NCBI GenBank assembly: GCA_013239625.1
Contig: MU053881.1
Coordinates: forward strand, 16,794,373-16,858,372
Direction of reading: 5' to 3'
Source: Lama guanicoe
Lineage: Eukaryota
DNA length: 64,000 nt
Notes under the pieces: generated by a model
What the model saw: the letters and a program-made list of their open reading frames with translations, nothing else
What the model was told of the DNA's origin: nothing
Databases searched by the model: none
Made by a program: the position numbers and the translations under genes
Shown here: positions 3,536 through 51,856 of the stretch, one piece after another
How the letters are laid out: each line of letters begins with the position of its first letter
Position numbering within the stretch: position 1 is the first letter of the stretch

Positions 3536-4160
<625 letters not shown>

Positions 4161-6328: not shown

Positions 6329-6472
<144 letters not shown>

Positions 6473-9400
6473 TCAGAGGGGCGGTCAGGTAAAAGGGAAA
6501 CAGACCAACCAGCAGCGGGAGCTGTTCCATCACACAGTATCCTCTCCCCCAGGTAACACGCTTCCCCTGTCAAAGCCCATCCACGAATCCGGATGGTAGA
6601 TTTCATGCTCTATCTCATCTGGAAAATGTGAATTTTTCATACAATCTTTCCCCCAAATGTCAGTGAGCATCCACCGCTCAACTAGAAAGGCAAGCGTCCC
6701 ACAACAGGATGGACGGTCAAGTCAACCCAGGAGAAATCGACGAGTACGCTGTTCTAAGAGGACCTGCTGGCCTCTTCAGACTTGCTGGTCCCTCCATGGG
6801 GTTTCTAGGCAGCAAGGCCTCCAGTGACCTGGCTCACCCTGTCATATAAGGTCTGCTTCCTCCCAGCCAGCTGAATGGCAAGATAAATACAAGAATATGG
6901 ACGCCTTGGGACACGTGGGCCATCCAGTTGGGAGGAGGGGTGGGGGTCACCTGGTCAGAACTCCAGCCTCAACTAAGGCTGGCTGAGAGTTGCTGGGACA
7001 AAAAGGTGTCAGAAAGGAAAGAAAACTTGGTTGCTGATAAACGAGAGATGTCTGGATGGTGTTGCTGGCTTTTCAAGGTGTTTTTACCTACAAGTGGTGC
7101 GCATAAAAGCAGGAACTCCAGGATCAAAAATGTGCTGAGTCACAATCCCCGCTCTGCCGGGCTGTAGCCACGTGGCATCGGGTGGGTTGCTTCACTGCTG
7201 GCTCTGAGCCTCCCTATCCCAGCACCTGGTTACTTCACACCTCTGCAGGGACAGCAACGGAAGGGTGTGGCATTATACCTGGCATGTGGGATGTCCCACA
7301 AAGAACAGCTCTTACTGCTGTGACTTCACCTCTTTTAATCCTCGAGTATCTCACCCATTTTACAGTTGGAGAAACTGAGATCCAGCAAGGCGATGCAGTT
7401 TTGTTCAGTGTCACAGAGGGAATGTCCTCTGGAGCCCCAACCCAGGGTTCCTGCCTTGCTGAACCAGCACTCTGGGTCCTGTGGGGGCTTGGAGGCCACT
7501 TAGGAATATGGAGAGTTGGTAAAATAGAGATCTACCGACGGGTGAAGTATAAACCCACCCTGGCTTCTTCCTGACAAGACAAATAAAGACTCTCCAAATT
7601 GGAGGAGGATGTAAAAATTAGTAGAGTGAAAAAAAAATGAGGCCAGAGTTGCTGAGAAACAGAGTCAGGGAACTTTTCACAGCTCCAGAGTCCGAGTGGC
7701 AGAGGGAGAGGAAATACGCACAGGTGTTTCGGATCGCAACTTCCTCTGAAACACCAATGTGGAGAATCCATTTCAACCACCGATGAACTAGTTGCAGAAA
7801 TATCACCCACACCTTCCAGTGAGTAGGTGCCTTTCATTCTCTTTCAATTACATGAATCTTAGCTCTTTCCACTACGGGGGCAGGAATCAATTCTTTCCCC
7901 CCAATAGTTTTTAGTACATTCACAAAATTGTGCAACCCACACCACTGATTCCAAAAAATAGTTTTGTCACTCCTAAAAGAGACCTCATACTCATCAGCAG
8001 TCAAGAAATTGACGTTTTAGATCATGCAGAGGTGCATGATTCATGAGTAGCCTTAAAAAAAAAAGCCACTCCTTATGTGAGGGATTTTGAATCCCGACAA
8101 CATGCTTTTGGCATGTTTTCAATTATCTGGCATCGAAAGAGCTCTGAGATGCATTCATATATGTATGTATATACATATGTATATTTTTTTGAAAAACTGC
8201 TAGTCACTGCTAGTCATTTTGGGCTCCTCCCCTTCCTGCAATCAAAGCTTCTACACTCTACAAAGGATTTCCCTTATAAGGTAAAAGAGGCTTGCTAGAT
8301 ACATGTGGCAAAGGAACAGGAAGATGTCCGTTAATCACACAAAAATCTAAACGAAACCAGCTGTCGGGAGGCAGACTCAGAAGTCTGCCACACGCCGGCT
8401 CTTGGCTTTCTCTACCAGAGACTGAAAAAGGTTTTTTTTTTTTCGCCTCCTCTGGGCTCAATTCCTTTTACCCAGGAAACCTTCTCAAGGCTTTTCCCCT
8501 CTCCTGACCAAGAGAAGCACGCTTTGAAAAGTGAACTTTTTAAAGAAGTTTGCGACTTTCCAAAAACATCTTTCCTCCCAACTGGACAGTCCCACTCTTA
8601 AGTCTTGGCTGATGGCTAAGGGCCATTTTTAAGCAGAAGTAATTGTCCTCCAGCGAGATGACTTGGGATGAGATCAGAGGGAGGGTTAGGCCGGTTACGT
8701 GTGTGAAAGAGGCCAAACCAGCTACTGTTGGAGGCTTACACCAGGTTTCTGAGGCCTCTTCACGCCAGAGCAGACCTTACAGGATTAAACACTTTGACTC
8801 CAGCCAGGCGCAAGGCAGCCCGGGGCTCTTCCCTAGACCTGTCAATACACATGGCAATTCCACACACCTGGGCATCCTTTCCATTTCTGGGGGTCCCCAC
8901 CCTGAGTCTCAATGCTCCAGCTTTCAGGGATCCTGGGCTTCCACCCTCTACCCTAACGAAATTTCTTGCCTCTGCGTCTTTGCACATGATCTCTCGTTCC
9001 AGCAAACTCTTAGTTCTTCTGTAAGACCCTGTTCAACCTCCACTTTGAACCTACCCTACCGGCTGGCTGCTTTTGTTAGGATCCCGTAACAGAATACAGA
9101 ACCCCTCAGGAACACTAATCAGTCTTATTTGTACCCCCAACTCCCTCCCCCACCCCCACCCCCATGCACACACTAGGCTGTGAGCTCGTCTGGGGTAGAG
9201 AAGGGAGAAAAAAGACTAGGAATACTCTTTTTTCTACTATATGCCAGATGCCATGCAGGGAGGTTTTATTCCTGAGACGCCCCCGGCTATCCTGGGGTCA
9301 GCATTATTGTCGCTCATACTTTACTGATGGAGACACGCTCCTGGGAGTGAAGTACGAAGTGGTATGAGATAGGATTGGAATACAGACCTCTCTCTGGCCC

Positions 9401-10274
9401 CACGGGTTGCCACCACCTGTCTGATCCCAAGGGGCAGTCAGGCGACGGAGAAGAGAGGTCAAGCCCCCTCCTCATTCAGCCCCATTATCTGCCTCAAGCC
9501 CTGCGACTTGCAGCAGAGGCACACAAAATGATCGTGGGTCAAGGGCCCCGTGCTAAGGTCCCAAGGGTCCCTTAAAAGGAAGGCAGGGTCCCGCGGCCCT
9601 TGTTCCCGCCGGGACCAGCTGGGGAGGGAAAGGCCGGCGGCTCGGGACTGAACTTCCGCCCCCGCCTGGAGCAGACACGTCGCCGCCGCGCCCCTGGGAA
9701 CAGCTGGGAAAGTTCAGCAGGAACCGGGAAGCCTCGGAAGAGGCGAGAAAGTGCGACGCCCCCACCCCCACTCCCGGTCTCGCCCTGTCCAACCCCAGAC
9801 AATGGAAGCGCTACGTTTCCACTCTCACTTCCCGCTCCCAGGTCGAGTCGCAGGCCCCCCTCCCCCGCCCCGCCCGCCGCGCCCGGACCCCGGCGCCAGC
9901 CGCCAGTCAGAAGGCAGCAGGGTGTCCCCGAGCCCCTCTCCCCATTCCAGGATCGCGCACCCCCTCCTCCGTCCCATCCCCCCGTTTCTCGCTCGGCCGG
10001 CCCCGCCCGACCCGGATGCGGCACCCCCTCCCGCGTCCCAGGCCAGGAAAGGAGGATGGCGGTGAAGGAAGGGGTTTCAGCTGCGGGTCCCGGGGTGCGG
10101 GTCCGCGATTCGGAGCCCTGGGGCGCGAGTGTGCGAAGGTGGGCTAATGGGGGGGGGCAGCGGCGGGCGGGGAGCGCGGGAAGCGGGCGGCGCCGGGAGA
10201 AGGGAAGAAAGGAGGGGGCGCCCGGGCCGGGGGGCGGGAGCCCGAGCGCGCGGGGCCGGGGTGCGGGCTCTCAC

Positions 10275-10406
10275 TTTCTCGCGCCGCTCGCGCTCGCCGT
10301 CCAGCTCCCGCTGCAGGCCCTGCGCGCGGTCCTCCGCCTCGTCCGCCTGCTGCTGCAGGGCCTGGATCTTGCGTTTCACCGCCTCCAGGGAGTTGAGGCC
10401 AGCCAT
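10275..10406 (-). CDS. TPM4: Tropomyosin 4 exon 1b (short isoform start)
   Basis: 132 nt, [44 protein letters not shown], the diagnostic TPM4 N-terminus; donor GTGAG. Confidence 0.98.
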
Positions 10407-10809
10407 GGCGCGGAGGCGCACGCAGCGGGTGCGGGCAGCGGCGGGCGCTCGGCTCGGCTCGGCTCGGCTCGGCTCCGGCAAGAGCTGCAGCAGCCGCGCC
10501 CCGGCCCCCGAGCCTTTGCCTGCGCCGGGGCCGCCCCCGCCTCTCCCCGCCCCCGGCCCGGCCGCCGTCGGGGCGATGAGGTCACCCGGCCCGGCCGCCG
10601 ACGTCAGCACCGCTGGGGGAGGGCCTGACGTCGGCACCGCTGGCCACAGCTGCTGGAAAGTGCCCCTTTTCGGGACTTATTTGGAGAAAGCGCCGGGAGG
10701 CACCGCCTTCTCCTCTTCCTCCTCCTCCTCTTCCTCTGGCGCTTCCCACCCGCCCGGCCCCGGGGCTCCTGCCTGGCTCTGCCGCGGGCCCCCATTACTG
10801 GCCACGTAC

Positions 10810-10935
10810 GTCGGAGGCTTTCTTCTCCGTCAGCTCCAGCTTCTCATGCGCGTCCTTTAGGCTCTCGGAATGTTTGTCCAGTTCATCCTCCGTCTCCTTC
10901 AGCTTCTTCTGGAGGTGCGTCAGCTCCTCCTCCAC
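10810..10935 (-). CDS. TPM4: Tropomyosin 4 exon 2b
   Basis: 126 nt, [42 protein letters not shown], flanked by CAG acceptor and GT donor, phase 0. Confidence 0.95.
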
Positions 10936-13900
10936 CTGGGGACAGATCGGGGGACGCGTCAGCCTGGGACCACGACCCCGCGGGGCAGGGGTGTGCCCCC
11001 ACATTCACAAGAGTCCTCTGCCTGTGTCTCTGGGCCCAAGTTTTCTAATCTGTAAAACAGGGGTAACAGTGTTATGCACCACTCAGTAAATGGGTTAATA
11101 CGCCTTTAGCATCCTTTCCTTGTGCTTATCTTTTTTGGGGTCCCCTCTGTCCTCTTGCGGAATCCATCACAGCTATTGGGAAACAAGCCCCGACGCGTTT
11201 CCTAGAAACACGTGTTCAGTTTTTGCAGGCTCCTCTGAGGAGTCTCATGTTCTGGGCCTAGACCATCCCCTTACCCGCAGCCACCCCAACTCTGGCAGCC
11301 AGAGAAGCTTCCTACATATGTTTACCGGCCTTCTGCCTAGAACCTGCCGTGGCTCCCCATTGCTTAAGAGAGGGGTTCTCAGACCGTCCCACAAAATACC
11401 CTGAAGAGTTGACGTGCTCAGCCTCCCCAACTCCTGGACTTTGGGGGCTTAGGCTAAAAGAGAGGTACTCAAAGATCATTTTCTTGGAAAGCTCAGGTTA
11501 AATCTTTTACATTCTTGCATATTTGGCTTGTGTTCGTTTTAATAAAAATGTTCCTTACATTCCCCAAATTTTCAGTCCTCTTTGTTTATCCTGAGAGTCT
11601 TGCCCCACTCCTGGCACCCACAGTTTAAGAAGCTCAGGTCTATGGGATGCAAACCACAGACCCCTCCACCTCTCTGTTTCCACCACCCCCTACCACACCA
11701 GTCACCTCTCTCACCTCCCTCACCTTCCTCTAACTCTGAGCTGGGATGATCAGACCAGCTCATGCTTTGATCTCATTACGTCTCAGGTGGTTTGACCCCT
11801 GGTTTTGTCCATACTTTCAGGGTGGGCAGGTAGCCCCAAAGGACCGTGCATCCTCCTCCTGCTTCTTCCTCACAACAGGAAGCCCAGAGAAGGGGAGTGG
11901 CTCTCTGAGGGTCACACAACACAGGATTTGAACCCACTTCTGAACAGGCCCTCATGCCAGACTTGCTTTTCTGCACCCCTCCCTGACACGTACACTCCTA
12001 AGACAATATGCATAATATCAGGTGCTGTGTATGTATGTGTGTGAGCGCACACTTGCAGGCGTGCACGTTCTTCAAAGGGTCCCATCGCAGCCTCCCATCT
12101 CCCGGGCTACTGAGTGTCCTACTGCTCGCTGAGCTGGGGAATGGAAGCCGGGTGGAAGATCAAAGGAGAAGGGTGGCAGCAACTTGGGCCTAAGTCAGGG
12201 TCCACAGGCTCTGACCTTGACCTCTAGGTAAGGAGCCGGAAGCCTGACTCCAAATCCCAGCTGTATGACCCCTGTCCCCTTTTTTGGGCCTCAGTCTCCT
12301 CATCTGCAGAATGGAAGCCTTGACTTGGTGGTCTCTGAGTGTCCTGGCAGCTGCTTTTGAGCTTCCGCCTTGACCGAGAAAATGAGCCAATTTCCTTAAA
12401 GACAGGTCAGCCTGACCTAGTGTCCATTTGACTTCCTCTGGGTGACAGCATTCCCTAGGGGCCAGCTGTGTGCCGGGCACAGTGCTCTTATAACATGAAA
12501 GTATAAGAGCAAGTTCTGCAGCATTGGGTTCATTTGGGTGTAAAGGAAGTTTCTGATGACTTTTTCTTGCAGTGTTTGCACAACCAGGAATGAGTCTGTC
12601 ATAAGCAGGGCAGGAGACCACGGATCAGTTAGAATGTGCCACCGTCTTCCTGGAGCCTTATGGCACAGAAAAGTAAACTGAGTCCCTAAATAAGAAAAGG
12701 ACCTGCCCAAGGCCACACAGAGAGCTCATTTGAACCCTTGTCAGACTGACTCCCAGCTGGGTTGCTCCTCTGCTGGGTGAGCTGTGCCCACCGCCCAGCA
12801 CACTTTCTTCCACTGACCCTCCACACCCAGCGCCAGTGCCCCCTCCCCTAGGCAGAGCCCTCACCAACCCCTTGGGACCTCCCAGTCGCTATCTGACCCT
12901 CTGGCCCAACCCTGACCCCTAAGGCAGGGTTGTCCCTCCGTGTGTGGCTCTGTCCCCCCCACCCCAGTCTGGGCCTGAGGTTGCTACGGGCTCCAGCATC
13001 ACCCAGCGTGGAGCTGGGCCTGATGCTCACCACAGAACCCCGGGGGGGGGGGAGGTTTGCAGAATGAATCAACGACACAATCCCAAACCCTTCACTGGTT
13101 GGAGCCGAGTCTGAGAAATAAGTAAGACGGACACAGACTGGGTTCCTTTCCCTCTGTGAATTCCACCCCGACAAAGCGTGTATGGGTGCACAGGGCCTTG
13201 CTGGGGGGCTGAGCCTTGCCCTGGCTCTGCGAGGTCTCCCTCAAGTCATTTCCTTCTTGGGACCTCAGTTTCCCTGCTTGTAAAATGGCCAGGAGGGTCA
13301 TGGATTGCATCCCTGCAAATGGGGCCTTTGGGCAGGGCTGAAGCAGGATGTGGGGTCAAAGGCCATTTGTGGCGGATGTCACTGCCCTGGGAGGAGAGCA
13401 GGCAGGAAGTAGGCAGGCTTGGCCTCCTAGTCTTCTTCTGGACAGAGAGGGCTTGGAATCGAGACTTTGCTGCAGGGTCCATGAGGGTCAGGCTGGCCCA
13501 AGAACCATGTTCTCTGGGCTCCTGAAGCATAAGACACTCTGGGTAAATTGTCTTTCATGGCCTCCTGCCTTTGTTCCCAGGCAGAACTGGCCATCTGCCC
13601 TACAGAGCTCAGGCTTCTGCTTTGGACCTCTGGAATTTTGGCTTCAGTGCCCTACCATAAGAAAGCATTGTTTGCCCCCATTTCTCAGATGGGAACACTG
13701 AGGGCTCAGAGAGGGGCAGCAATGTGCTCTGAGTCACAGAGCTAGATGATCTGGTATGACTTTTAGCACAAGTCCACCCCAGTGGGCAGCTTTGTGGCAA
13801 AAAAAAAAAAAAAAGCCAGAATGAAAATCCAGCTGGAGGCTAGAGAACTCATCCTGGCCTTGGCCACCCAGCTGGCTGGATGCTTTGAGGAGCCTTCCCT

Positions 13901-15049
13901 TTTGAACTTGTGTCTGCCTTGGTAGGTTATGCTGTATCAGTCACTCACACCTTAGTGAAAATTAGAGACAGAAAGTTGCTTTTCTCTGAATCCCTAGCTA
14001 AGCTGCTTATGGTAAGGGCTGGAAGGGACGGGTGGAAGCTGGCAGCTCAGTGCCAGCACAGGATGGGCGTTTGTGTTTGCCAGGGAAGGAGGAGGAGGGT
14101 TTGTGGCAGGGAGCACTGGGGTGGGGCTGTCCTGTGCAGATGTGTCACAGGCGCTTAAGGCAGTCCTGGGACACTGGGGGGTGGGGAAGCCCAAAGAGGA
14201 AGTAGGGCAGGGCAGGAAAGAATCCTGAGCTTACTGAGTGCTTACTCTGTGCCAGGAGGCAGACCAAGGGCTCCACCTGCACAGTCACCCCCAGTCTTCC
14301 TATGGTGGGGAGGGAGGCACCACTGTCTCCTCCCCATTTCACACATGTGGCCACTGAGTCACAGAGAGGTGAAGGTGTTCATTCCAGGATGCTCAGTGAC
14401 TGAGCTATGAACTGGGCCGTTCTGAGCTCACAGCCTGCACTTTTACCTGCCAAGCTGGCCTGGTGCCTGGGCCAGGCAGGGCTGGGCACTTGGTGTCACT
14501 GCCCAGGGTGTCTGCTGGGGCTTATCTGAGACCTTGATGCTCTTGAGGGCTTGGTGGTTGACCCCAGGGGTGTGGATGAGCTTATGGGCATTATGGGAGG
14601 GGGCAGGACCCCCTTCCCTCCTCTCATTGGCTGCTCTGGCCACCCAGACCCAGACAACTGACTCCTGTTCTGCCCCAAGCCACAGCCATGGGACTGCCCA
14701 GCCCAGGCCTCTGCCTGCTGCCCCTCCACTAGCTCCCTGATATGTCCCTATTGCCAGGGCCTCCTGGGAATCTTGTCCCCAAAGCTCTGGGTCCAGTGCT
14801 TCTGCCTGCCACCAGCACCCCTTGCCTTCCCCTGCCAGTCTCACAGCAGGGGCAGTAGGGGCACCCCAGATACACAGAGGCACATTGAGATTCTCAGATT
14901 CACCCTCAAATCTCTCCCCCAACCCAGTCCCCAGACTCTCACCCAGCTGCCCCTACAGCTGGTCACAGCGGGCCCTACCCCACATCCACACTCAGCCACC
15001 CTCCCTGGGCAGTCACTCACAGTCACACCTGAGTGTGCCCTGACGTGGG

Positions 15050-15530
15050 CACCAGGTCACCCACACACACAGACACAGGACACACACACCCTGAAATACC
15101 CACACGCCAGTACAAACACACAGTTACCTCAACACACACACACTCACCCTGACACACGTACATTCCATGAATGTCATGTCAACTTTTGCACAAGCACATG
15201 CACAGCCAGCCTCTGCCCTGTACACACAAACCCATGCTCATTCCACCATCAACATACACACAAACTCACAAACACAACCACACTCACACCCACTTTCAAA
15301 CAACCACATGCTCATGCCCCTCTCCGTAGACTGTCACCTTCAGCCCTCTGAGCAGCTGAAACACAGACACACAACACGTGTGCAAGCACAGATGGGCAAA
15401 CACACACAAATACCTTTCACAAACACAGCATCCCTCAACCACCCCATCTAGGACACCCCCATGCTGCCACTCTCACCCCAGTGCACCTCCACACGCTCTC
15501 ACATTTGTGCGCACACAAGTGGCCCACACA
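15050..15530. repeat. CA-rich low-complexity tract in TPM4 intron 1a
   Basis: Degenerate (CA)n/(CACA)-rich sequence. Confidence 0.75.
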
Positions 15531-15808
15531 TCGCCCCTCCCTTTCTCATCCGCTTTCCACTGTCTCTGTCACTTTGCTCCCACTGGTCCTGCTGGGAGTG
15601 GGTCCAGCTGGCCCCATCTCTCGCAGCCCAGGGACCCCTCCCGGGAAGACAATGGTCCCTTCCCTCCTTCTCAGCCAGCGCATCACCCTCCGCCGCCCCC
15701 AGTCTCTGCCCTAACCTCCAAGTACCAAGGTGTCCGAGACTCCCACCCTCTCCAGCTCAGAGAGGGTGCTGGGCAGCCCGACGCAGCCCAGCGAAGAAGG
15801 CTCCTCAC

Positions 15809-15922
15809 CTGTTTGCACCTCTCCTCAGCGGCTTTCTTATCTGACTCTGCCTGTTCGGCGCGGTCAATGGCGTTCTCCTTGTCCAGTTTCAGCATCTGCA
15901 TCTTCTTCTTGATGGCCTCCAT
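15809..15922 (-). CDS. TPM4: Tropomyosin 4 exon 1a (long/high-molecular-weight isoform start)
   Basis: Encodes [38 protein letters not shown] (114 nt). Start context gccATGG; followed by donor GTGAG. Confidence 0.97.
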
Positions 15923-16009
15923 GGCTGGGCCGTGGTGGGTGCAGGGGCAGAGCGGGCTGCGGCGGGGGCTGGAGGGGCTGCAGGGGCGAGTGAGCCGGGA
16001 GGGCAGAGG

Positions 16010-16230
16010 AGAGGCCCTTATAGGCTCCCAGGGTGCACCGCCCTGCTGCCGGGCGAGTCTTGGAGGAGGCCCAAGCCCAGGCCGGCCGGGCCAGCCACCA
16101 CTCGCTTGCTTGTTTGGGAGGACTTGGCCAGCTCACCAACCTCCCTGCAGCCGTCGCCTTATTTGGGCCTAGGATTTTTCTCAAAGGGGAAAAAAAAAAG
16201 GCCCGACCCGGTTCCATTTTTAACCTGGTG
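16010..16230 (-). promoter_or_regulatory. TPM4: Upstream promoter of TPM4 exon 1a with TATA-like element and CArG (SRF) box
   Basis: Minus-strand CCTATAAGG at about 16016-16024, about 100 bp upstream of the ATG. Perfect CArG CCTTATTTGG at 16157-16166. A/T-rich MEF2-like TTAAAAATGG at about 16213-16222. Confidence 0.7.
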
Positions 16231-21482: not shown

Positions 21483-21602
21483 AGGGGGAGGCTATAACTC
21501 AGTGGTAGAGTGCATGCTCAGCATGCATGAGGTCCTGGGTTCGATCCCCAGTACCTCCATTAAATAAATAAATAAAAATAAACCTAATTGCCTTCCCCCT
21601 CA
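21483..21602 (+). mobile_element. tRNA-Ala-derived SINE
   Basis: A box and B box (GGTTCGATCCC) intact; AATAAACCTAATT tail. Confidence 0.88.
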
Positions 21603-22561: not shown

Positions 22562-23509
22562 TCACCGAATAAAAGCTGGCCTTCTGCTGACAAGGGCCCC
22601 CAAGGCGCCCTTCATATCTCTGTTCCTCAGACTGTAGATGAAGGGGTTCAGCATGGGAGTGACCACCGTGTACATCACTGCAGCAGCTGTGTCCTTCTGG
22701 GCTGTATGGGAGGACATGGGGCTGAAATAAACCCCGATGAGTGTGCCGTAGAACAGGGGCACCACAGAGAGATGAGAACCGCAGGTGGAGAAAGCCTTCC
22801 GCTTGCCTCTCATGGACGGGATCCTCAACACAGCAGCAAAGATGCGCGTGTAGGAGGCCAGGATGCCCACAAAGGGAGTGATGACGGTCAGGGCACCCAC
22901 AGTGTACACCATTGCATTGTTGAGAAAGGTGTCAGAACAAGCCAGCTTCAGCAGAGGGCTGAGGTCACAGAAGAAATGGGGGACCCGGTTGTGGGTGCAG
23001 AATGAGAGGCGGGTCAGTAATACCGTGTGGGTCAGGGCATTCCCGAAGCCTGCAGTCAAGGATGCCACCACCAGGAGGCCACAGAGCTGAGGTGTCACAG
23101 ACGTGGTATAGTGCAGAGGGTGACAGATTGCCACATAGCGGTCGTAGGCCATAGCAGTCAGCAGGAAGCTGTCGATGCCGGCGAACCAGATGAAGAAGAA
23201 CATCTGGGTCAGGCAGCTGGCATAAGGAATCCCTTTATGTCCTGTCATGTGGTTGGCCAGCATTTTGGGGATGGTGGTGGAAGTGAAGCAAATGTCCACA
23301 AAGGCCAGGTTGGCCAGGAAGAAGTACATGGGTGTGTGGAGCCGGACGTCGGTGGCAATGGCCAGTATAATGAGCAGGTTCCCCAGTCCTGTGATCAGGT
23401 ACATGCTCAGGAAGAGTATGAACAGGAGCTGCTGTTGCTTGGGGTCCTCTGAGAGGCCCAGGAGCAGGAACTCTGAGATCAGGGTGAGATTTGCCCCTTC
23501 CCGGGCCAT
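22562..23509 (-). CDS. Olfactory receptor, family 1 (OR1AB-like), intact single-exon 315-aa ORF
   Basis: All OR motifs present: N-glycosylation [57 protein letters not shown]. Splice acceptor AG at 23511-23512 just upstream of the ATG. The OR1AB assignment is from recalled synteny next to TPM4. Confidence 0.95.
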
Positions 23510-32838: not shown

Positions 32839-32917
32839 ATGGCTGAAGCCAGGGACTACAAAGCCAGGGGGTGCACAACACTGAGGGCCAAACTTTCCCC
32901 GAAGCCAGGGGACACTG
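32839..32917 (+). CDS. C-type lectin exon 1 (cytoplasmic tail)
   Basis: gccATGG Kozak context, MAEARDYKARGCTTLRAKLSPKPGDT, donor G|GTGAGT, phase 1 matching exon 2. Confidence 0.7.
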
Positions 32918-33267
32918 GTGAGTCAGGAGCGGGGACCAGGGGCCCTTTTCCTTGCTAACAAGGGCTGGGTGCTGGGTTGCGCCAACACCCTAACCGAAGA
33001 TCAGAGGAAGAGAAAGCTCAGAGTTCAAACTCGAGGCCCTACTTCATCCCCTCAGTCTTCACCCTTGTGACCCCCTCATCCTTGAAGGATGGGCTTCTTT
33101 TTCCAGCCTTTTCTGAGTCTTCAGCATCCGGTGTTTCCAGTAGGGAACCTGGAATACCATGGGGGATATGGCAGATTCCCCCAGCTGGTCTGAGAGTACA
33201 CTTAGCCATCTGAGCGGGAGAGAGTGTACGTCCCTGGGGAGAAGGAGGCTGACCTGGTTTCCCCCAG

Positions 33268-33375
33268 GGCAATGGGGACAGAAGTCCCAGAACAAGACCT
33301 GGAAGTATCTCTGCCTCGTCGTGTCCCTGATCCTGCTTCTCATGGTCATTATCCTCAGTGTGGTTCTGCCCAAAG
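33268..33375 (+). CDS. C-type lectin exon 2 (transmembrane signal-anchor)
   Basis: Acceptor TTTCCCCCAG; GQWGQKSQNKTWKYLCLVVSLILLLMVIILSVVLPK; non-canonical donor AAG|GCAAGG. Confidence 0.8.
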
Positions 33376-33928
33376 GCAAGGCAGCTGGGCCAGCGGGGAC
33401 CGGGTGGCCACTGGGAAGCAGACACACAGCTTCCAACCTGCAGAAGTGGGTCTGCAGAGCTGGCACCGCAGTGGCTGCTCTGTGTCCCTGGGGGGATGAC
33501 AATAGTGACAGAAAGGAGTTGACCTCCCCACCAGCCTCAGAGGCATTGGGGAATCTGCATGGGCCGAAGGAGGAGCACAAGTTGGTCTGAGTCATGGGTG
33601 AGTGTCTTCCCAAAGCTCGTCTCTGAGCTGGGGCTAGAACCCTAGGTTCCCTGCGAAACAGGACAGAGAATTGACTCTGCAGTCAGATACACATGAATTG
33701 CAAGTCTTGCCTTACTGTTCACTAGCTGGTTGCCTTAGACAAGGGCCTTTACCTTTCTGGGTCCAGGGTTTTCCTCATCTTAAAAAAATGGGTGGGGGCA
33801 TTTTAGAACCCCGGTGTGCCTTGCCCCAGGGCTGGGAGAAAACCTTGGTCCCTTGGGTCTGAAGAACAGAGAGAAATCTCAGGGAGGTTCTGGGGGATCC
33901 ACAGCCTTCTGCTTATGCCTCTCCCCAG

Positions 33929-33982
33929 TTGTGAAGATGACACAGCAGTTGCAGGAGGGAGTCACACAACTGAATGAAAAAG
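33929..33982 (+). CDS. C-type lectin exon 3 (neck)
   Basis: Acceptor CTCTCCCCAG, VVKMTQQLQEGVTQLNEK, donor AAG|GTGAGT; 54 nt, phase 1-1. Confidence 0.78.
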
Positions 33983-34078
33983 GTGAGTGCAGGTCATATG
34001 GGTTGGCCCCCTCCCCCCAGCCACATCCCCTCCCTCTGCCAAGACCTTCACCAGCCCTTACACTTCGGGTCTCCCTTG

Positions 34079-34168
34079 TGATACAGGGACTGGCAGACGC
34101 CAGACATGACCGGGACTTCATTCAGGGCGAAATGTTCCGTCAAATGCAGGCTGTGCTGGCTGGCAATG
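34079..34168 (+). CDS. C-type lectin exon 4 (neck)
   Basis: VIQGLADARHDRDFIQGEMFRQMQAVLAGN resembles the recalled CLEC4G neck VTQGLAEAGRGREDVRTELFRALEAV. Donor G|GTAAAG. The 5' boundary is uncertain because TG stands where AG is expected. Confidence 0.72.
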
Positions 34169-34662
34169 GTAAAGGGTGGGGCAGGAGTGGTGGGGAGGGG
34201 GAGGGGCTGTGCAGGAGTGGGTCTCAAGGGGCACCCGGGGATAAAGGTTTCTCAGATCTTTTTAGAAGGTTAGAGTGACATGGTTAGAACATGTCTGTAG
34301 TGGAGGGCTCCCAGAAAAGCAAGACTTTTGAGACAGCCAGATGAGGTCTGGGTTCATGGTCACCTGCAACCTTGTGAGCCTCTCTGAGCCTCAGTTTAAT
34401 CAACTGTAAAATGGGAGAAATTAATAGTATCTTCTTCCAGACTGGCTGTCGGGATCCAAAGCCTCCACTTTTAATCACCACAGCAGTGCGCTGCAAAATG
34501 TTGCTCTTTATCTGCATTTTAGAAGTACCTGGAGAGTTTGCTAAAATGCAGATTCTTGAGTTCCAAATAACTCTATTGGATTCTATTGGAGGGGGTACCC
34601 TTAGTGTTGTATATTTTTAAAACAGAACTTTTGCATGAGTGAAGGAGATGCACTACGTATAA

Positions 34663-35249
34663 AGTTGATTCTCATTATTCACTGTAGCGACCTTTTACAA
34701 AGTTGCCACAAATACTGAATTAGCGAATATTGAATCACTGCTCCTGGGGGAAATCCAGGGTTAGGTTCCTTTGAGCCTTTGGTCATAACACTTTGTCAAC
34801 TGATCAATACATAACCTTATTTCTGTGTGTTTCTGTTTAAATATGTTTAATATATATCATTTCATTAACATTAAACTCACGGCCAATAGCACTATAACTG
34901 ATTGAAACTTAGCGAACACACATGCATTTTCTTTGCAAGGCACATGGCAGCCTTTTTGTGCTTAGGAACATTAGATAGAGCTTCAGCACTATGCTGAGGG
35001 CCTTTTAAAGCAGCGAAGGCACCAAGAAAAAGCAGAAAAATGAGAAAAACACGTTTGTTTACAACATGAGAGTAGGAAAAAGAAGGCAGAGCTTTGCCTT
35101 ATCTTATCTCAGACTCAAACTTTTTGCCATCCCACACATGTCTTCAAATGACTGTGAAAACTTCACAAGAATTGATTTTGGGATTACCAATACATTTCAG
35201 CCAGTAGGTGAATTCACAGATATGGAGTCTACAGACAATGAGGATTAAC
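34663..35249. mobile_element. Tigger-type (TcMar) DNA transposon fossil in lectin intron 4
   Basis: Terminal inverted repeats AGTTGATTCTCATTAT ... ACAATGAGGATTAACT; internal sequence resembles Tigger3. Confidence 0.7.
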
Positions 35250-35908
35250 TCTGTGTGTGTGGATTCACCAAATGAATACAGATGAATTTAGTGAGAATTC
35301 TCCCTCCATCTGCTGAGCCCTCATTGCCAAATTCCCACCTAACCCTCAAGAACCACTGTAATTAGTAATTTTTTGTTATTATTTAAGGGGAGAGTTTGTC
35401 AACCTCTGTATTATTGACATTTGAGACTGGATCATTCTGTGTAGTGGGGGATTGTCCTGCGCCTTGTAGGGTGCTTGGCAGCATCCTTGGCCTTGACCCA
35501 CCCGTTGTGACAACCCTCCACTAGTTGTGACAAACAAAAAATGTCTCCAGATGCTGCCAATTGTCCCTGGTGGAGACCCACTTACTCTCGACAAGTAGAG
35601 AACATCAAGTGTATGTCCCTCTATTTAATATAAAATATATAAAGTGTTCACATTTAGTGTATATTGTTCACACTATTTTTTGAGTCACTTTGCCCCCCTC
35701 CACAATAGCATGTCAATAGCATTTTACTCTTTCCTCTCTAATATGGTCCAGTAATGGGAAGCACCCATTTACTAGGTAGTGAGTCTCCAGTTGTTGGGTG
35801 TATTTAAGTGGTGGCGATCAGGGGTATGAATGGGGGTGGTGGGTGACGTGTCCCTTCACTGGATAGAAAGCCGGGGATGCTGACTCTGCGGATGATTTTT
35901 GCTCACAG

Positions 35909-36057
35909 AGTCCTCCTGCCACTTCTGCGCCCTGGACTGGATCGCCTTTCAGGGCTCCTGCTACTTCTCCTCGGGCAACCTCACCTGGACCCAGGCTAAT
36001 GCTTCCTGTGCCCAGAAGCGAGCTCACCTGGTTATCATCAACAGCCAAGCAGAACAG
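35909..36057 (+). CDS. C-type lectin exon 5 (CTLD part 1)
   Basis: ESSCHFCALDWIAFQGSCYFSSGNLTWTQANASCAQKRAHLVIINSQAEQ, the classic CxxxWxxFxxSCY...W...C...AHLVII...EQ pattern; CAG/GT boundaries. Confidence 0.92.
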
Positions 36058-36921
36058 GTGGGAAAGAGAGAGGCAGGACCTTAGCAGGGTGGAAGAGGAA
36101 TTCTACAATAATTTGGGGGTTCATACCCATGTCCTCTTTGGAATCCAGCACAATACTCCTAGTGTGGTCTTTAAGACTTGCCTCAACCCACCCTCACTGC
36201 TCTGACATGCAGAGAATGGACTCTGTGTACCGTGCTCTTGCCTCCAAGCTCTGATTCACATGGATTCCTCTGCTTGGAGTTCCCTTCCCTTTGCTGTCTC
36301 TATGGGGAACTCTTAGGCACCTATTAAAACCCCAGTACAAATACCCCTTCCTTCACATCCTCTCATGGCATTCATCACAGCCCTTCAGGCTGCATTGTGG
36401 TTGCCAGGCCATCAGTCTGGTGCTGGATCTAAATCTATGGGTCTCCTGGGCCAGGAACAAGGAATGGCCCAAAGTAGGGCATCAGGAATGTCCTTTGATT
36501 TGGGTTTTTAGCCAGAAATGTTCCTGTAGCCTACAGATCAAACCCCCTGCCCTGACATACACTGACATCCTTAAAGGGGACTCTCAAGCAATATTTGCCC
36601 AGTGCTTCTTTCTAGGTGCACATGCCTCGCGCAATTGACTCTTTTGATCTTGGGAATATGCTGGGAGGTGGAGACTCTATTGTTTCCTTTGTATGGGTGG
36701 GGAAAACAAAGGGTGGATGACTTGTCTGAGGCCATACAACATGCACATAGTGGATCTGGAATTCATAGTCAGGATATAAAGTGAGAACTCTGTGTGGCTG
36801 CATCTGTCTGCCTGCCCACCTGAGGGTTCCTCTGCACCTTAGCCCTCCTCCAGCTCCTTGAACCTTCATCCTTTCAGCTCTGATGGAACTCGACTTTGCA
36901 AGTGTGCCTTATCTCATCCAG

Positions 36922-37025
36922 GACTTCCTGACATCAACTGGGCAGGTGACATCCTGGATAGGCCTCTTCCAAGAGGGCCAAGGAGGTGCCCACAGGTGGA
37001 CTGATGGCTCAGCCCCCACCTACAC
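36922..37025 (+). CDS. C-type lectin exon 6 (CTLD part 2, WIGL)
   Basis: Not in the ORF track. Acceptor TCTCATCCAG; DFLTSTGQVTSWIGLFQEGQGGAHRWTDGSAPTY(T); 104 nt, phase 0-2. The donor reads ATGAGT instead of GTGAGT. Confidence 0.88.
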
Positions 37026-37374
37026 ATGAGTCTCCCTGTCTGGGATGCAGATGCTCCTTGCCACCCAAAACAATCTCCCCCCAAGACTGGTAGGGCATTC
37101 AAGGAGTGAGTTTACCACTACGCACGTTATTCTCTTTCATTCATTCATAATTATTTACCTACAGCAGCTCCCAAACCACATGGCTTCCTTTCTATTATAC
37201 CAGCTATTGCTATTCTGTTACTTGAGAAGAATTTTCCCAGCTTAAATGCTTGAGAAACAATGAGTTAAATGCCAACTGATTTCTTTGTTTCAGGGCTTCT
37301 CAGAATCTTGAATATTCTCATATGCAACTTGGGCCTTTTTAGGAGTATAACAATGTAGCACTTTCCAACTATAG

Positions 37375-37805
37375 GAGCTTTCTGTGACTGCTGTAACAAA
37401 GGACCACAAACTGGGTGGTTTAAAACAACAGAAATATTCTTTCACAGTTCTAGTGGCCAGAAGCCCCAGATCAGGGCCACATTCCCTCCAAAGACTCTAG
37501 GGAGGATCCTTTCTTGCCTCTTCCAGCTTCTGGGGGCTCCAGGCGTCCTTTGCTTGTGGTCACATCACTCCAATCTCTGCCTCCATCTTCACATGGCTTT
37601 CTCCCTTGTGTGTCTGTGTCTCCTTTCTGTCCTTACAATGGCACTTGAGATTGGATTTAGGGCTCAGTTAATCCAAAATGATCTGATCTCAAGGTCCTTC
37701 ATTTAATTACAACTGCAAAGATCCTTTTCCCAAATGAGGCCACATTCACAGGTACCAAAGGTTAGGATGTGGGCATATATCTTTCTTGGGGGCAACAATG
37801 AGCCC
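37375..37805. mobile_element. MaLR (MLT1-type) LTR in lectin intron 6
   Basis: CTGCTGTAACAAA..ACCACAAACTGGGTGG.TTAAAACAACAGAAAT start and CACATTCACAGGTACC...GGTTAGGA end, typical of MLT1. Confidence 0.75.
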
Positions 37806-38448
37806 ACTCTACCTTCCTGGCATTTTCCTGCATCCTCACATTCTTTGCCTTTGTTTGTGATGTTTCTCTCTGCTGTCTCACCTTTTCTTGTCTGGCAAAT
37901 GGCTCTGTATGAGTCCAGGCCCAGAGCAGAAGTCATCTCCTTGGTAAACTCATCTGTTGTCTGAATACCTGCTGTATACTATACATGCATCAGTCATCAC
38001 ACCCTCAGAAATACTCCCATTTTGCAAAAGAGGAAAACTGAGGCTCAGAGACATTAAGACAGTTGCCCTGGTCACAAAGATAGCAAGTAGCAGAGCAGGA
38101 ATTTGGACAGAGTCTATCTGGCTTCAGGGTAAATGGACCTCAGAAAAAGGGAGAGGCTAGTGGGATGGGACAGTTAGAGACGGTGGCCAAGAAGCTTGGA
38201 GATCCTCAGCTTCTCTGAAGACCATTGTCTGTTACCACTTCTATTTGAACTTAGTTTCTCCCCTTGAAGGGAGAAAAAAAAAATGGGAAGGGGTTGACCA
38301 GATGGCTACTGTAAGGTGGCTCAATAAATTACTTCTACTTGAAGGGCTACCAGAGCCTCAGGGCCAGACCCTCACTCACAGAGGACAGGGCTGGGGCCTC
38401 CAGGCTCTGGCCTGTCTGCAGAGGGGGTTGGTGGGCATCTCTTTACAG

Positions 38449-38587
38449 CAACTGGGTCTCCAAGGATCTGCACGAAAATGGCACTGCCCCAGCCTGTGTG
38501 ATGATGGTCTACCACGGGCACTGGAGCGACTTCTTTTGTGAATCAGAGTCCCCTGTTTTCATCTGTGAGAAGTGGCAGAGCTGCTGA
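38449..38587 (+). CDS. C-type lectin exon 7 (CTLD part 3, stop)
   Basis: Acceptor CTCTTTACAG; NWVSKDLHENGTAPACVMMVYHGHWSDFFCESESPVFICEKWQSC*, matching the CLEC4G-type CVMM...W.D..C......ICEK...C ending. Confidence 0.92.
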
Positions 38588-38689
38588 CCCAGGCCTCCAC
38601 ACTCCCCAGGACTGATGTAGACCCCTTGCTATATGCATCCTCAGTCCCCCTTTCCTGCCTTTCTCTGGTTCTATGTTCCCAGAGGCAAC

Positions 38690-38695
38690 AATAAA
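38690..38695 (+). terminator. Polyadenylation signal of the C-type lectin gene
   Basis: AATAAA about 100 nt after the stop codon. Confidence 0.6.
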
Positions 38696-48088: not shown

Positions 48089-49029
48089 TCAGGAGCTTGA
48101 GGGACAGAATGTTCTGCGGAAGCTTCTCTTTATGGCATTCTTCAGCTCCTTATTCCTGAGGCTGAAAATGATCGGGCTAAGAAAGGGGGTGAAAACTGTA
48201 TAGGTGGTGGCCATCAGAGTGTTACTGTCCATCGAATGTGAACCCTTGGGCTTAAGGTAGATCATGGAGGCAAAACCATAGTGAACAATCACTATGGTGA
48301 GGTGGGATACACATGTGGAGAAGGTCTTGTGCCGGCCCTCAGCTGAGGGGATTTTCAAGATGGCAGCCACGATGAAGACATAGGAGAGGAAGATGAGGAA
48401 TAAGCACCCCATCAGGGCTGTGACACAAATCAGGATCACACTCAAGGTGACAGATGACATCCCCTTCCCACAGGCCAACTTCAATAGAGAAAGCACATGG
48501 CAGAAAAAATGGTGGATCTCATTAGACCCACAGAAGGTGAGATGAAAAACTATCAGTGTCACCATCATTCCCATGACTGAGCCACCAGCCCAAGGACACG
48601 AGAACAGTCACGTGTGCTCATGAGCACGTTGTAGTGCAGGGGGTGGCAGATGGCCACGTAGCGGTCATAGCCCATGATCATGAGCAGGAAGGAGTGGGTG
48701 AAGCCGAATGTAAAGGAGAAGAACATCTGGCTGGCACAGGCCACGAAGGAGATGGAGCGGTGGTTGGAGAGCATGTTGACCAGCATGTGAGGGGTGATGG
48801 CAACAGTGAACAGAATCTCAGAGATGGAGAGGGCACACAGGAAGAGGTACATGGAGGTGTGGAGGCTGTGCTCACTCCAGATGGTGACTATGATGAGCAG
48901 GTTGCCCAGGAGTGTGAACAGGTACATCAACAGGTACAGCAGGAAGAAGGCAGGCAGGAGATGCTGAGGGAAGTTGGAGAAGCCGATGAGGATGAATTCA
49001 GACATTGTGCTATAGTTCTGACCAGACAA
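48089..49029 (-). pseudogene. Olfactory receptor OR10H3/OR10H4-like pseudogene
   Basis: Two overlapping ORFs in different frames join into an OR10H-type protein ([50 protein letters not shown]). Frameshift at about 48593-48603; TTG at the expected start codon; LHTSMY instead of LHTPMY. Confidence 0.92.
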
Positions 49030-51856
49030 GGATGCTGCATCTGGTGAGATTAGAAATAGGATGAAGTCACAGTGGTTAAAACATAGGCTCTAACATAGAT
49101 TAAATGGCAATTAAAGACCTCCATACTATATAACTATTTGCTTAACTTGTCTGAGTCTCACAGTCTTCATCAGTAAGATGGAATAAATGATAATACTTCT
49201 TACCATTTAGTAATATGATAAAGATAAAATGAGATCAATATATTAAGCGCTTAAGGCATAGTTTGGCTATTGGGTTTTTTTAATCGAATGAAAATTTCTT
49301 TAAATCCTATAGTGCTTTATAATGGCTATTGAGTTTTAATTAACCATGATGAAAAGAAATAAAAGATCCCAGGTTTGTAATCATTAAGACGGACATAGAC
49401 CATCAGAGTCATATTCTCTTGAAGAGTCTGCCTGTTCTAGAAAACCTGTATTTTGATCTTGAGGTTCTAACCCTTTTTTTTCTCTGAGAAGTTTTGTCCT
49501 TTAATTGAGTAACCCATTCACTTTTGTTTTAATACTGTTTTATTGGTACTCATTTGTGCCATCTTGTCTCATATTTTGTATTTGCTGTTCTAAAGTAACT
49601 GAACAGAAAGTATGAAAATAAAAAGCTGGACAGTTATATGCCAAGCAAATGTGCACCAAAGGAAAGCTGAGGCAGCAATCTTGAAAGTAGGGAAATAATG
49701 GGTTAAAAGAAAAAATAATCATAATATCTCTGTTACCAGATGCCAGTAAAAGGAAACAGGGTCCCTGCAGAAATGGTCTGGGCATGGAAGCAAGGCTAGG
49801 AAATCTCTGCAACAGTGAAATGGAACTTCCACTGAGCAACGTGTTCACGTTAAAGGATGTTGGGACCTGAGTGAGAAGATGTCTATTGGCCATAGGGGAC
49901 CATGTGCAGAGGATGGAGGAACAAGCTAAATGACACTCTGAAGAAGCAATCAGAAAGTCCAGAAGGTGAAATATTCCACAGAACAACTGGTCTGGTCTCA
50001 TCAATAAGCCAGGACCAAGAAAAGGATGAAGAGAAATTCAAGGGACATAACAACCATATGCAATACTGGGTTCTAGATTAGATGCTGATTTAGATATGCT
50101 AATTGTGAAGTATTTTAAAGGAGATAGAGGAGATTTTGATTATAGTATAAATGAATGATATAGTATAAACAATATTAAGGTGTGATTATTAATTTAGCTA
50201 TACATTTTATATTTGATCTTGTTATTTCAGCTGTGAAGGTAAATATCAGTAGTTTAAAAGCATGTTGACATTTAAAAGTTGCACACATATGCACACATGA
50301 AGAAACAAAGAGGAATATTTCATGAAGGTTAAAAGAAAGTTGTAATGACTTGCATATATATAATTAACCTATATAAAAATAATCACTTGAATGTTAGGAA
50401 TAAATATCCAACACAACTTCAGTGAAATAGTTGTAAAATAGAAGTAGCTAAATCAATACTAGTAGCTAAATCAATATTGAAGTTGAGAATTTTAACAGAG
50501 TTCAAAAATCCAATTTGGGAATTATTAATTATAACACATTAATAATATTCAGACATTAGCTCCTGGCTATATTTAGACTCTTTACCAAACAAGATGAAAC
50601 ATATTTTTCAAGCACATAGAAGACTCAAACAAAAACTTACTTTGTTTTAGGACATGAGAAAATCCTCCATCCACTTTGAAGTATAAATAATAAAATAGAT
50701 TATAATGCACTAACATTATAAATCAACAGAGAAGGAATAGTTTTCCAAAGCCATAAGTTAGAAGGATAAATACATTATTAAATACTATTTTATTTCAGTA
50801 GTAAATCATAAAATAAATGAAGAAATATTTATAATTTAATAATTTAAACATCAAAGGTCAAAACTTTAAACTAAAACAGTACTGTATGGGAAATATGCAG
50901 CTTTCAATATATTTATCAAGAAACTTTATCTAGAAAATCATCATTAATACAACCAAAATCAGCTGATGGAAAGGATTAATAAGATAGAAAGAGGAAAAAT
51001 GTCAAGGAGAAAACACAAAATTAAAATTGGGAAATAAAAGTACAGAAATAATAGATTATTTTAATGGATAAAAATAATAAGAAAAATATATTAAGACATT
51101 GAAACACCCCCCACCCCTCAAAAGGAATAAAATCTCAGAAACAGATAAAATACCAAGACTGGTGCAAGAAAAAATAGAGACCCTGGATTTCAAAGAAGTT
51201 CTAAAGAAATTGAAATAGTTAAAGACTTTTCCTTCCTGTAATCATTAGCCCCACTGAGTTTATAAGTGAGTGCTCACAAATCTTTAATGAACAATTGACA
51301 AATATTTTATACATGTTCTTGAAATAAAAGAGAAAAAAAAGAAAAAATTGAAATCTGCCAGGCTCATTTCATCAAGTGAATGCAATCCTGATTCTAAAAC
51401 TGTATAAGAATGTTATAAGAAACAATTATCGGCTCGCTCTACCTATCCAAGTTGATTTTAAAATCCATAAGACACCACCTAATCAATGAAATGGTGTATT
51501 AAAGTTAGTAAATTATGATCAAGTGTTGTTGGTTTATCCCATGAGTGACAAGGTGGTGTAGCACCATGTGATCCATCACATAAATAAACTAAAAAGAAAA
51601 ATTATGTAATTATTTTTTATCAAGGAAGGAATATATTTTCTAAAATTAAACTCCTATCTATGATTTAAAAATTTTCAAATAATTGACCTATAACATCATA
51701 TTAGTTTTAGGTATACAGCATAATGATTTGACATTATGTCTATTTATGATTTTTTAAAAGACTTTTGCAACAGGAAATTGAAAAAGACTTTATTAGCAAG
51801 GTAAAGAATATGTACTATAAAACTAACAAGATTTATTCATTGAGTTCTGCTTAGAG

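Follow-up and report, generated by a model that had tools for sequence, protein, structure and literature searches.

A CLEC4G-derived lectin locus of the guanaco, probably a unitary pseudogene recently inactivated at its splice sites

We analysed a stretch of 64,000 nucleotides from the guanaco, Lama guanicoe (GenBank assembly GCA_013239625.1, contig MU053881.1, positions 16,794,373 to 16,858,372 of the forward strand; hereafter the window, numbered from its first letter), in which seven exons can be joined into an open frame for a 240-aa membrane protein with a C-type lectin-like domain. Sequence comparison places the locus as a dispersed paralogue of the CLEC4G (LSECtin) lineage, a member of clade A of a placental pair of clades (A and B) and not the CLEC4G orthologue, and in this genome it is probably an unprocessed (unitary) pseudogene of clade A, recently inactivated by splice-site changes. 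The 240-aa join requires three non-standard sites, namely GC as the donor of intron 2, TG as the acceptor of intron 3 and AT as the donor of intron 6, of which the TG acceptor and the AT donor take their introns out of the GT/GC-AG and U12 classes to which all introns of an intact gene would belong. The AT donor is the decisive lesion, because intron 3 can be bypassed in frame. In this genome the AT donor would be unusable by the spliceosome, and the transcript would enter intron 6 and stop after the WxDG loop, leaving the protein without its final strands and without four of its eight domain cysteines; alternatively, a GT 30 nt upstream would be used and the WxDG core lost. Neither product would be expected to give a folded domain.

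Gene model and splice sites

The joined coding exons (723 nt, that is 240 aa and TGA; end phases 1, 1, 1, 1, 0 and 2; Table 1) contain no internal stop or frameshift. These exons had been described in an earlier account made by a model from the letters alone (the sequence-only reading), and we reproduced its coordinates and frame, together with the strong Kozak context of the start (gcggccATGG, with G at both -3 and +4) and the polyadenylation signal. That account took the type II lectin gene to be intact; its exons and layout are real, but the TG acceptor and the AT donor, neither of which it mentioned, break the gene. The layout is that of group II (type II membrane) receptors, with an N-terminal tail, a single signal-anchor (the one hydrophobic segment, residues 41-59 at the hydropathy peak), a neck and a C-terminal lectin-like domain. 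The domain extends over three exons with phases 1/0/2, as is the pattern in group II C-type lectin-like receptors, and has the conserved cysteines (those of the model are Cys 114, 117, 128, 144, 211, 225, 234 and 240). Lectin_C matches lie on exons 5 and 6, each, as a single exon, under the curated cut-off. We regard the locus as real because 18 DNA sequencing runs (7 studies, 5 organism labels), one of which may be the window's own source, contain 0.92-0.93 of 628 sampled window words; two runs guessed to be RNA contain 0.07 of the sampled words, which is evidence neither way.

The donor of intron 2 (aag/GC, bases 33376-33377) was not scored as a lesion, because GC-AG introns account for about 0.9% of human splice sites (PMC4176328). 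At the end of intron 3, which reads cccttg/TG ATA, the surrounding AGs lie 24 nt upstream, in frame, and 8 nt downstream, out of frame; if splicing used the nearest real AG for exon 4 (exon start 34087), the frame would shift and reach a stop after 87 aa. In human AG>TG mutants, neighbouring AGs were activated and not the TG (PMC2374985). Retention of intron 3 would lengthen the neck by 32 residues, and the read-through frames of a dog model (P0198) and of an unnamed protein (P0206) likewise span 32 codons. Compared at the protein level, the residue ahead of exon 4's first Val is Pro in both of these (which would fit CCA-G), where the window has Leu (CTT-G). The intron 6 donor is one change away from GTGAGT, in a CpG context, which fits CpG loss by ordinary transition. 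The remainder of this donor is at consensus in 7 of 9 positions, and ATGAGTCTC is not U12-like when set against the U12 donor consensus. Read-through meets TGA at once, after 195 aa, giving a protein that ends in PTYT. The TG and the AT stand at homologous splice points, because the orthologue models described below cross both junctions without a gap.

Using GT/GC-AG sites only, we enumerated 20 splice forms around exons 4 and 6, leaving out the 63-nt box listed in Table 1. Four of them stop at 87 aa, eight shift frame and four end at PTYT within intron 6; in the last four, splicing from the GT 30 nt upstream of the intron 6 donor deletes 10 codons including WxDG, a motif whose Trp all 25 aligned relatives share. 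Not one of the 20 retains WTDG together with the last exon in frame, and none rebuilds the whole lectin domain.

In place and length the 63-nt box resembles the first neck exon (21 codons) of relatives in marsupials and monotremes, and it is possibly a relic exon. The likeness in sequence is weak (scores as high are reached by 390 of 22666 random 60-nt stretches, and 2 such boxes occur in 24 kb), no orthologue model contains it, and it has no convincing match among the 352 stored proteins of our relatives set. Because of this weak likeness and its absence from the orthologue models it was not scored as a lesion, and its interpretation as a skipped true exon with a nonsense codon was rejected on the same grounds.

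Table 1 Features of the lectin locus and its neighbours in the window (a slash marks an exon-intron boundary)
Feature	Position	Strand	Description
Tropomyosin gene, 5' part	about 3700-16020	-	Alternative first exons near 10275-10406 and near 15900-16020
Intact olfactory receptor gene	22562..23509	-	315 aa; flanks the lectin locus; named OR1AB by the sequence-only reading
Exon 1	32839..32917 (start context from 32829)	+	ATG 32839; 79 coding nt; cytoplasmic tail; canonical donor CTG/gtgagt
Exon 2	33268..33375	+	108 nt; tail end and transmembrane segment; donor AAG/gcaagg (GC-AG type, possibly usable)
63-nt exon-shaped box	33535..33597	+	AG acceptor; G/gtgagt donor; phase 1; in-frame TGA 33588-33590
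Exon 3	33929..33982	+	54 nt; neck helix; both splice sites canonical
Intron 3	33983..34078	+	96 nt, in frame, stop-free; ends TG (34077-34078) where AG is expected
Exon 4	34079..34168	+	90 nt; last neck exon; CLEC4G-type 'QGLADA..R..EMFR' segment
Exon 5	35909..36057	+	149 nt; first third of C-type lectin-like domain
Exon 6	36922..37025	+	104 nt; WIGL and WxDG motifs
Intron 6 donor	37026..37031	+	ATGAGT instead of GTGAGT; context TAC AC/atgagt
Exon 7, coding part	38449..38587	+	139 nt including TGA; DLH for EPN, WSD for WND, last four cysteines
AATAAA polyadenylation signal	38690..38695	+	103 nt past the stop
OR10H-like olfactory receptor gene	48089..49030	-	Frameshifted near the middle; matches the OR10H1-like portion of a puma model at 65% (171 aa)

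Phylogeny and distribution

In the relatives set orthologues are represented by predicted protein models. With exon 5 as query, a full HMMER scan recovered close relatives at 67-82% identity. A word-based protein search with exon 5 alone, in which none of 12 candidates passed and the leopard orthologue was missed, gave a false negative, as the HMMER scan shows by recovering the orthologues; the ESM Atlas gave generic lectin clusters only. At least 60% identity over at least 200 columns is reached by 37 of the 352 stored proteins, of which 25, all carnivore models of 242 aa, align end to end (all 242 columns, 65-73% identity, two one-residue gaps). This full-length alignment argues that the exon model is not due to chance. 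Exon 1 aligns from residue 1 of the carnivore models onward, with a one-codon gap, and exon 5 has one codon fewer than the orthologues, the missing residue falling in a column that is identical in all 11 clade A rows compared. Most of the close relatives are predicted 'CLEC4G' or 'CLEC4G-like' proteins of cats, dogs, mustelids, bears, hyenas, armadillo, tamandua and others, among them XP_019271706.1 (leopard), XP_023102488.2 (cat), XP_005632812.1 (dog), XP_008704622.1 (polar bear) and the xenarthran XP_076975752.1.

A tree was built from 57 rows (the model, 52 stored proteins and four domains cut from fused models) and 162 columns; its outgroup does not lie on one side of a branch, and long branches are flagged. 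The core of clade A comprises 12 rows (support 99/94), namely the model, nine carnivore rows, a gorilla fragment (a 174-aa model without a membrane segment) and a degu protein on a long branch, and is extended to 14 rows (99/93) by tamandua and the unnamed P0186. Clade B, the sister of A (100/99; joint support of A and B 100/99), contains shorter proteins (224-241 aa) of carnivores, armadillo and aardvark and a hippopotamus fragment (paralogues P0190, P0081, P0236, P0258, P0261, P0132 and P0272); in armadillo, at least two clade B models share one scaffold with clade A. The 16 eutherian CLEC4G rows, among them alpaca and wild camel, group apart from both clades. That the locus should nevertheless be the true CLEC4G orthologue is hardly conceivable. 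Many orthologue models are named plainly 'C-type lectin domain family 4 member G', but the model is only 36% identical to alpaca CLEC4G (34-36% to alpaca and camel CLEC4G), forcing it into the CLEC4G group lowers the log-likelihood by 108 (approximately unbiased (AU) test, p-AU 7.6e-49), and the CLEC4G clade contains further, distinct rows for carnivores, armadillo and tamandua; from the ferret, polar bear and African wild dog rows it is evident that a true CLEC4G exists in carnivores besides clade A.

The sequence-only reading had called the locus a poorly characterised dispersed paralogue and had named two outcomes that would speak against this, grouping with true CLEC4G in canonical synteny and lack of a conserved frame at this position in other species. 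The phylogeny rejects the grouping, the locus does not lie in the FCER2-CLEC4G-CD209 cluster, and the whole reading frame is kept in other species' gene models. The paralogue call therefore stands, but the second paralogue, clade B, had been missed.

Five marsupial rows (P0096, P0262-P0264 and P0267) join A and B weakly (84/82), and a second gene of koala and wombat (P0171, P0172) falls nearer eutherian CLEC4G (90/91). Marsupials thus appear to carry two CLEC4G-type genes, each retaining all five Ca2+-site ligands, and a duplication that predates the marsupial-placental split is suggested. A profile search was also performed with a query that included five of the window's exons. Among the best 120 of its 454 matches, whole clade A models are found in Carnivora, Xenarthra and degu only; neither camelids nor other ungulates contribute a clade A protein to these 120, none of which is marked as encoded by this window, and the six camelid rows, from four species, are all ordinary CLEC4G (33-35% identity). 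This distribution fits loss of clade A in camelids and many other lineages. Collectively, the comparisons give good support to the view that an undescribed pair of CLEC4G paralogues without the sugar site exists in placental mammals and has been kept whole mainly in carnivores and xenarthrans.

Sugar site and predicted mode of action

The conserved ligands of the Ca2+/sugar site are the E and N of EPN, a downstream E, and the N and D of WND. Part of this definition is stated in PMC6791321. The guanaco model reads DLH for EPN, Pro for the downstream Glu and WSD for WND, keeping one of the five ligands, and so lacks the mannose-type signature of Ca2+-dependent carbohydrate recognition (EPN, Glu, WND); its mechanism is accordingly not that of LSECtin, to which the sequence-only reading had likened it. 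Clade A rows have 0-2 of the five ligands and clade B rows none, the EPN loop being deleted, while all five are present in 16 of 16 CLEC4G rows and in 9 of 9 marsupial and monotreme rows. The loss is shared across clade A and is therefore old, not a sign of decay in this genome; the A/B pair possibly descends from a marsupial gene that was still intact in EPN and WND.

An AlphaFold2 model of the leopard orthologue (mean predicted local distance difference test score, pLDDT, 69) has one long helix through membrane and neck, residues 37-110, and a lectin fold closest to CD23 (template modelling score about 0.8 on the target, 31-35% identity). No conserved tyrosine motif was found in the cytoplasmic tail. 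Lectin-like domains without the Ca2+ residues bind non-carbohydrate ligands, usually without Ca2+ (PMC6791321). Since the Ca2+ ligands are lost across clade A, sugar binding is improbable, and on balance we expect that a working clade A protein would bind a protein ligand independently of Ca2+. Where the gene works, its product would be a type II membrane protein that has a short tail, oligomerises through a helical neck and ends in a four-disulphide domain of the CD23/LSECtin type. Its partner would most likely be a protein on another cell, and it would serve perhaps as an adhesion molecule or as a receptor ligand.

Status of the locus

Several observations bear on when, and whether, the gene died. 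All 27 family-invariant residues and 72 of the 76 clade-invariant ones are present in the model, whose terminal branch is 0.14. Under assumed neutral rates, two lesions correspond to about 0.02 neutral changes per site (95% range 0.002-0.08), and a frame would still be open after 0.15 neutral changes per site with P < 1e-4. Given the invariant residues and the improbability of such an open frame, the gene either died recently or is not dead. A number of points weigh against a recent pseudogene. Neutral decay would put both lesions on splice letters and none in the frame with P 0.04-0.08, an objection softened because the finding was picked for its open frame. Both indels relative to the orthologues are whole codons, the intron 3 TG is close enough to its two AGs (8 and 24 nt) to fall within the 28-nt range of TG acceptors, and intron 3 can be skirted without loss of frame. 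Rare spliced AT-AG introns do exist (PMC4176328), and the lesions may be private to this one assembly. The comparison itself has weak links, as the orthologue models are predictions, the leopard model has a pLDDT of only 55-57 in loop 181-210, and the protein search is leaky and annotation possibly incomplete, so that absence from the protein collection may reflect annotation.

Among the other explanations, a gene still functional in this species or its close relatives, with TG and AT being a segregating null allele or assembly errors, is unlikely. The frame is fully open, the start context and poly(A) signal are whole and the conserved residues are kept, and none of the 18 DNA runs exceeds 0.93 of the 628 words, so that the window differs from them somewhere or some words are unindexed; but two independent errors would both have to strike invariant splice letters, the AT is what an ordinary CpG transition leaves, and no camelid clade A protein is among the matches listed, though CLEC4G of four camelid species is present there. 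A selected truncated product, with tail, membrane segment, neck and an incomplete domain ending in PTYT, acting as a decoy or lectin partner, is quite improbable. Models or isoforms of relatives do end at or just past exon 6 (ferret 201, lynx 207, aardvark 183 and hippopotamus 161 aa), but these short models may be decayed genes too, the domain would lack its last strands and four cysteines, and exon 7 is conserved like the other exons (60% to leopard), which a dispensable exon would not long remain.

Slightly more doubtful still is a working 240-250-aa protein obtained by non-canonical splicing, through the GC donor, through the TG-AG tandem or the upstream in-frame AG, and through the AT donor used directly or after A-to-I editing. 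It would account for the confinement of every lesion to splice letters and for the otherwise consensus-like intron 6 donor, and there are precedents: TG acceptors can work as alternatives up to 28 nt from an AG (PMC2374985), and primate ACTR10 has a spliced AT-AG intron derived from GT, alongside three edited AT-AG sites (PMC4176328). Against this, only 184 non-canonical sites are reported for the whole human transcriptome, and we see no sign of an editing substrate, because none of the 25 longest among 39 inverted repeats has an arm over the donor and the donor region folds no better than shuffled sequences do (z -0.06); rescue of the AT donor by A-to-I editing was therefore rejected for lack of a supporting paired structure. 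Equally doubtful is the fuller proposal that the gene is alive, with one transcript running through GC donor, TG acceptor and AT donor, and encodes a Ca2+-independent receptor of a pair lost by most ungulates and primates. A recently inactivated unitary pseudogene remains the reading that we favour.

Genomic neighbourhood

The locus lies between two olfactory receptor genes, one intact and the other, OR10H-like, probably also a pseudogene. A tropomyosin gene, which we take to be TPM4, lies further left; its short-form exon has matches among the tropomyosin chains of the PDB. In six-frame profile scans of the 64 kb this was the only lectin gene seen, and there was neither a copy nor a remnant of clade B. 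Elsewhere, clades A and B occur on one scaffold in armadillo and puma, their accession numbers follow one another in jaguar and clouded leopard, and in one puma model clade B is fused with an OR10H1-like gene. Ordinary CLEC4G is fused to FCER2 or to a neighbour that we presume to be CD209-like in four gene models. ARAGORN made tRNA-like calls at 3997-4068 and 21487-21559 on the forward strand; the first looks like a tRNA-derived SINE, presumably of a camelid type, and not like a tRNA gene.

Naming and significance

The gene is already predicted in RefSeq but is unnamed or misnamed there. Orthologues in many carnivores are entered as CLEC4G or CLEC4G-like, so that it is not the hidden gene which the sequence-only reading had announced, and many clade A models bear the plain name 'CLEC4G' (P0019, P0162, P0175, P0209, P0220 and others). 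No study of the A/B pair was found in the open-access literature, subscription journals and supplements being outside that scope, and the accessible parts of PMC7135977 and PMC9339297 list CLEC4G only. The direct biological stake in this genome is small, because the gene is probably dead. In dog, cat, ferret, bear and armadillo, on the other hand, there are two further CLEC4G-derived surface proteins, often named 'CLEC4G' in databases, without the sugar site of LSECtin, and work on expression, orthology or virus receptors in those animals can be led astray by the misnaming. The pair is also a clear case in which to test how a lectin lineage would have switched from glycan to non-glycan ligands before being lost in several lineages.

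Comparison with known systems

Human CLEC4O, which the sequence-only reading had suggested as a possible counterpart, has a position that we take to lie about 0.2 Mb from TPM4, with other genes between, in the region of OR10H, CYP4F and TPM4. One paper's table places this C-type lectin pseudogene name at chr19:15,856,586 (PMC12559834). It could correspond to a remnant of clade A or of clade B, because a second paralogue exists.

CLEC4G/LSECtin, the closest named family among the matches listed, has in common with the guanaco locus the type II layout, the last neck exon and the eight-cysteine domain. It differs in that the locus has only 34-36% identity to camelid CLEC4G, a neck about 50 residues shorter, neither EPN nor WND, and a place in a separate clade; in four gene models CLEC4G appears to be fused with FCER2 or CD209-like genes next to it, whereas the guanaco locus stands between olfactory receptor genes near a tropomyosin gene. 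The clade B 'CLEC4G-like' proteins belong to the sister clade, but at 45% identity, with the EPN loop deleted and none of the five ligands. CD23 (FCER2) is the best structural match of the leopard model and has the same cysteine count, and it provides a precedent for sugar binding lost and protein ligands kept (PMC6791321): human CD23 binds IgE without binding sugar, an analogy for the mode proposed for clade A. Its identity is 32-33% over the domain and its branch is separate. The nearest counterparts are the 242-aa 'CLEC4G-like' models of carnivores and XP_076975752.1, orthologues whose length is within two codons of the guanaco model at 65-73% identity (tamandua 62%), which are gap-free at all six junctions and share the same degenerate Ca2+ site. 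The carnivore models run across the intron 3 and intron 6 junctions, precisely where the guanaco locus has TG and AT, in addition to its two one-codon deletions.

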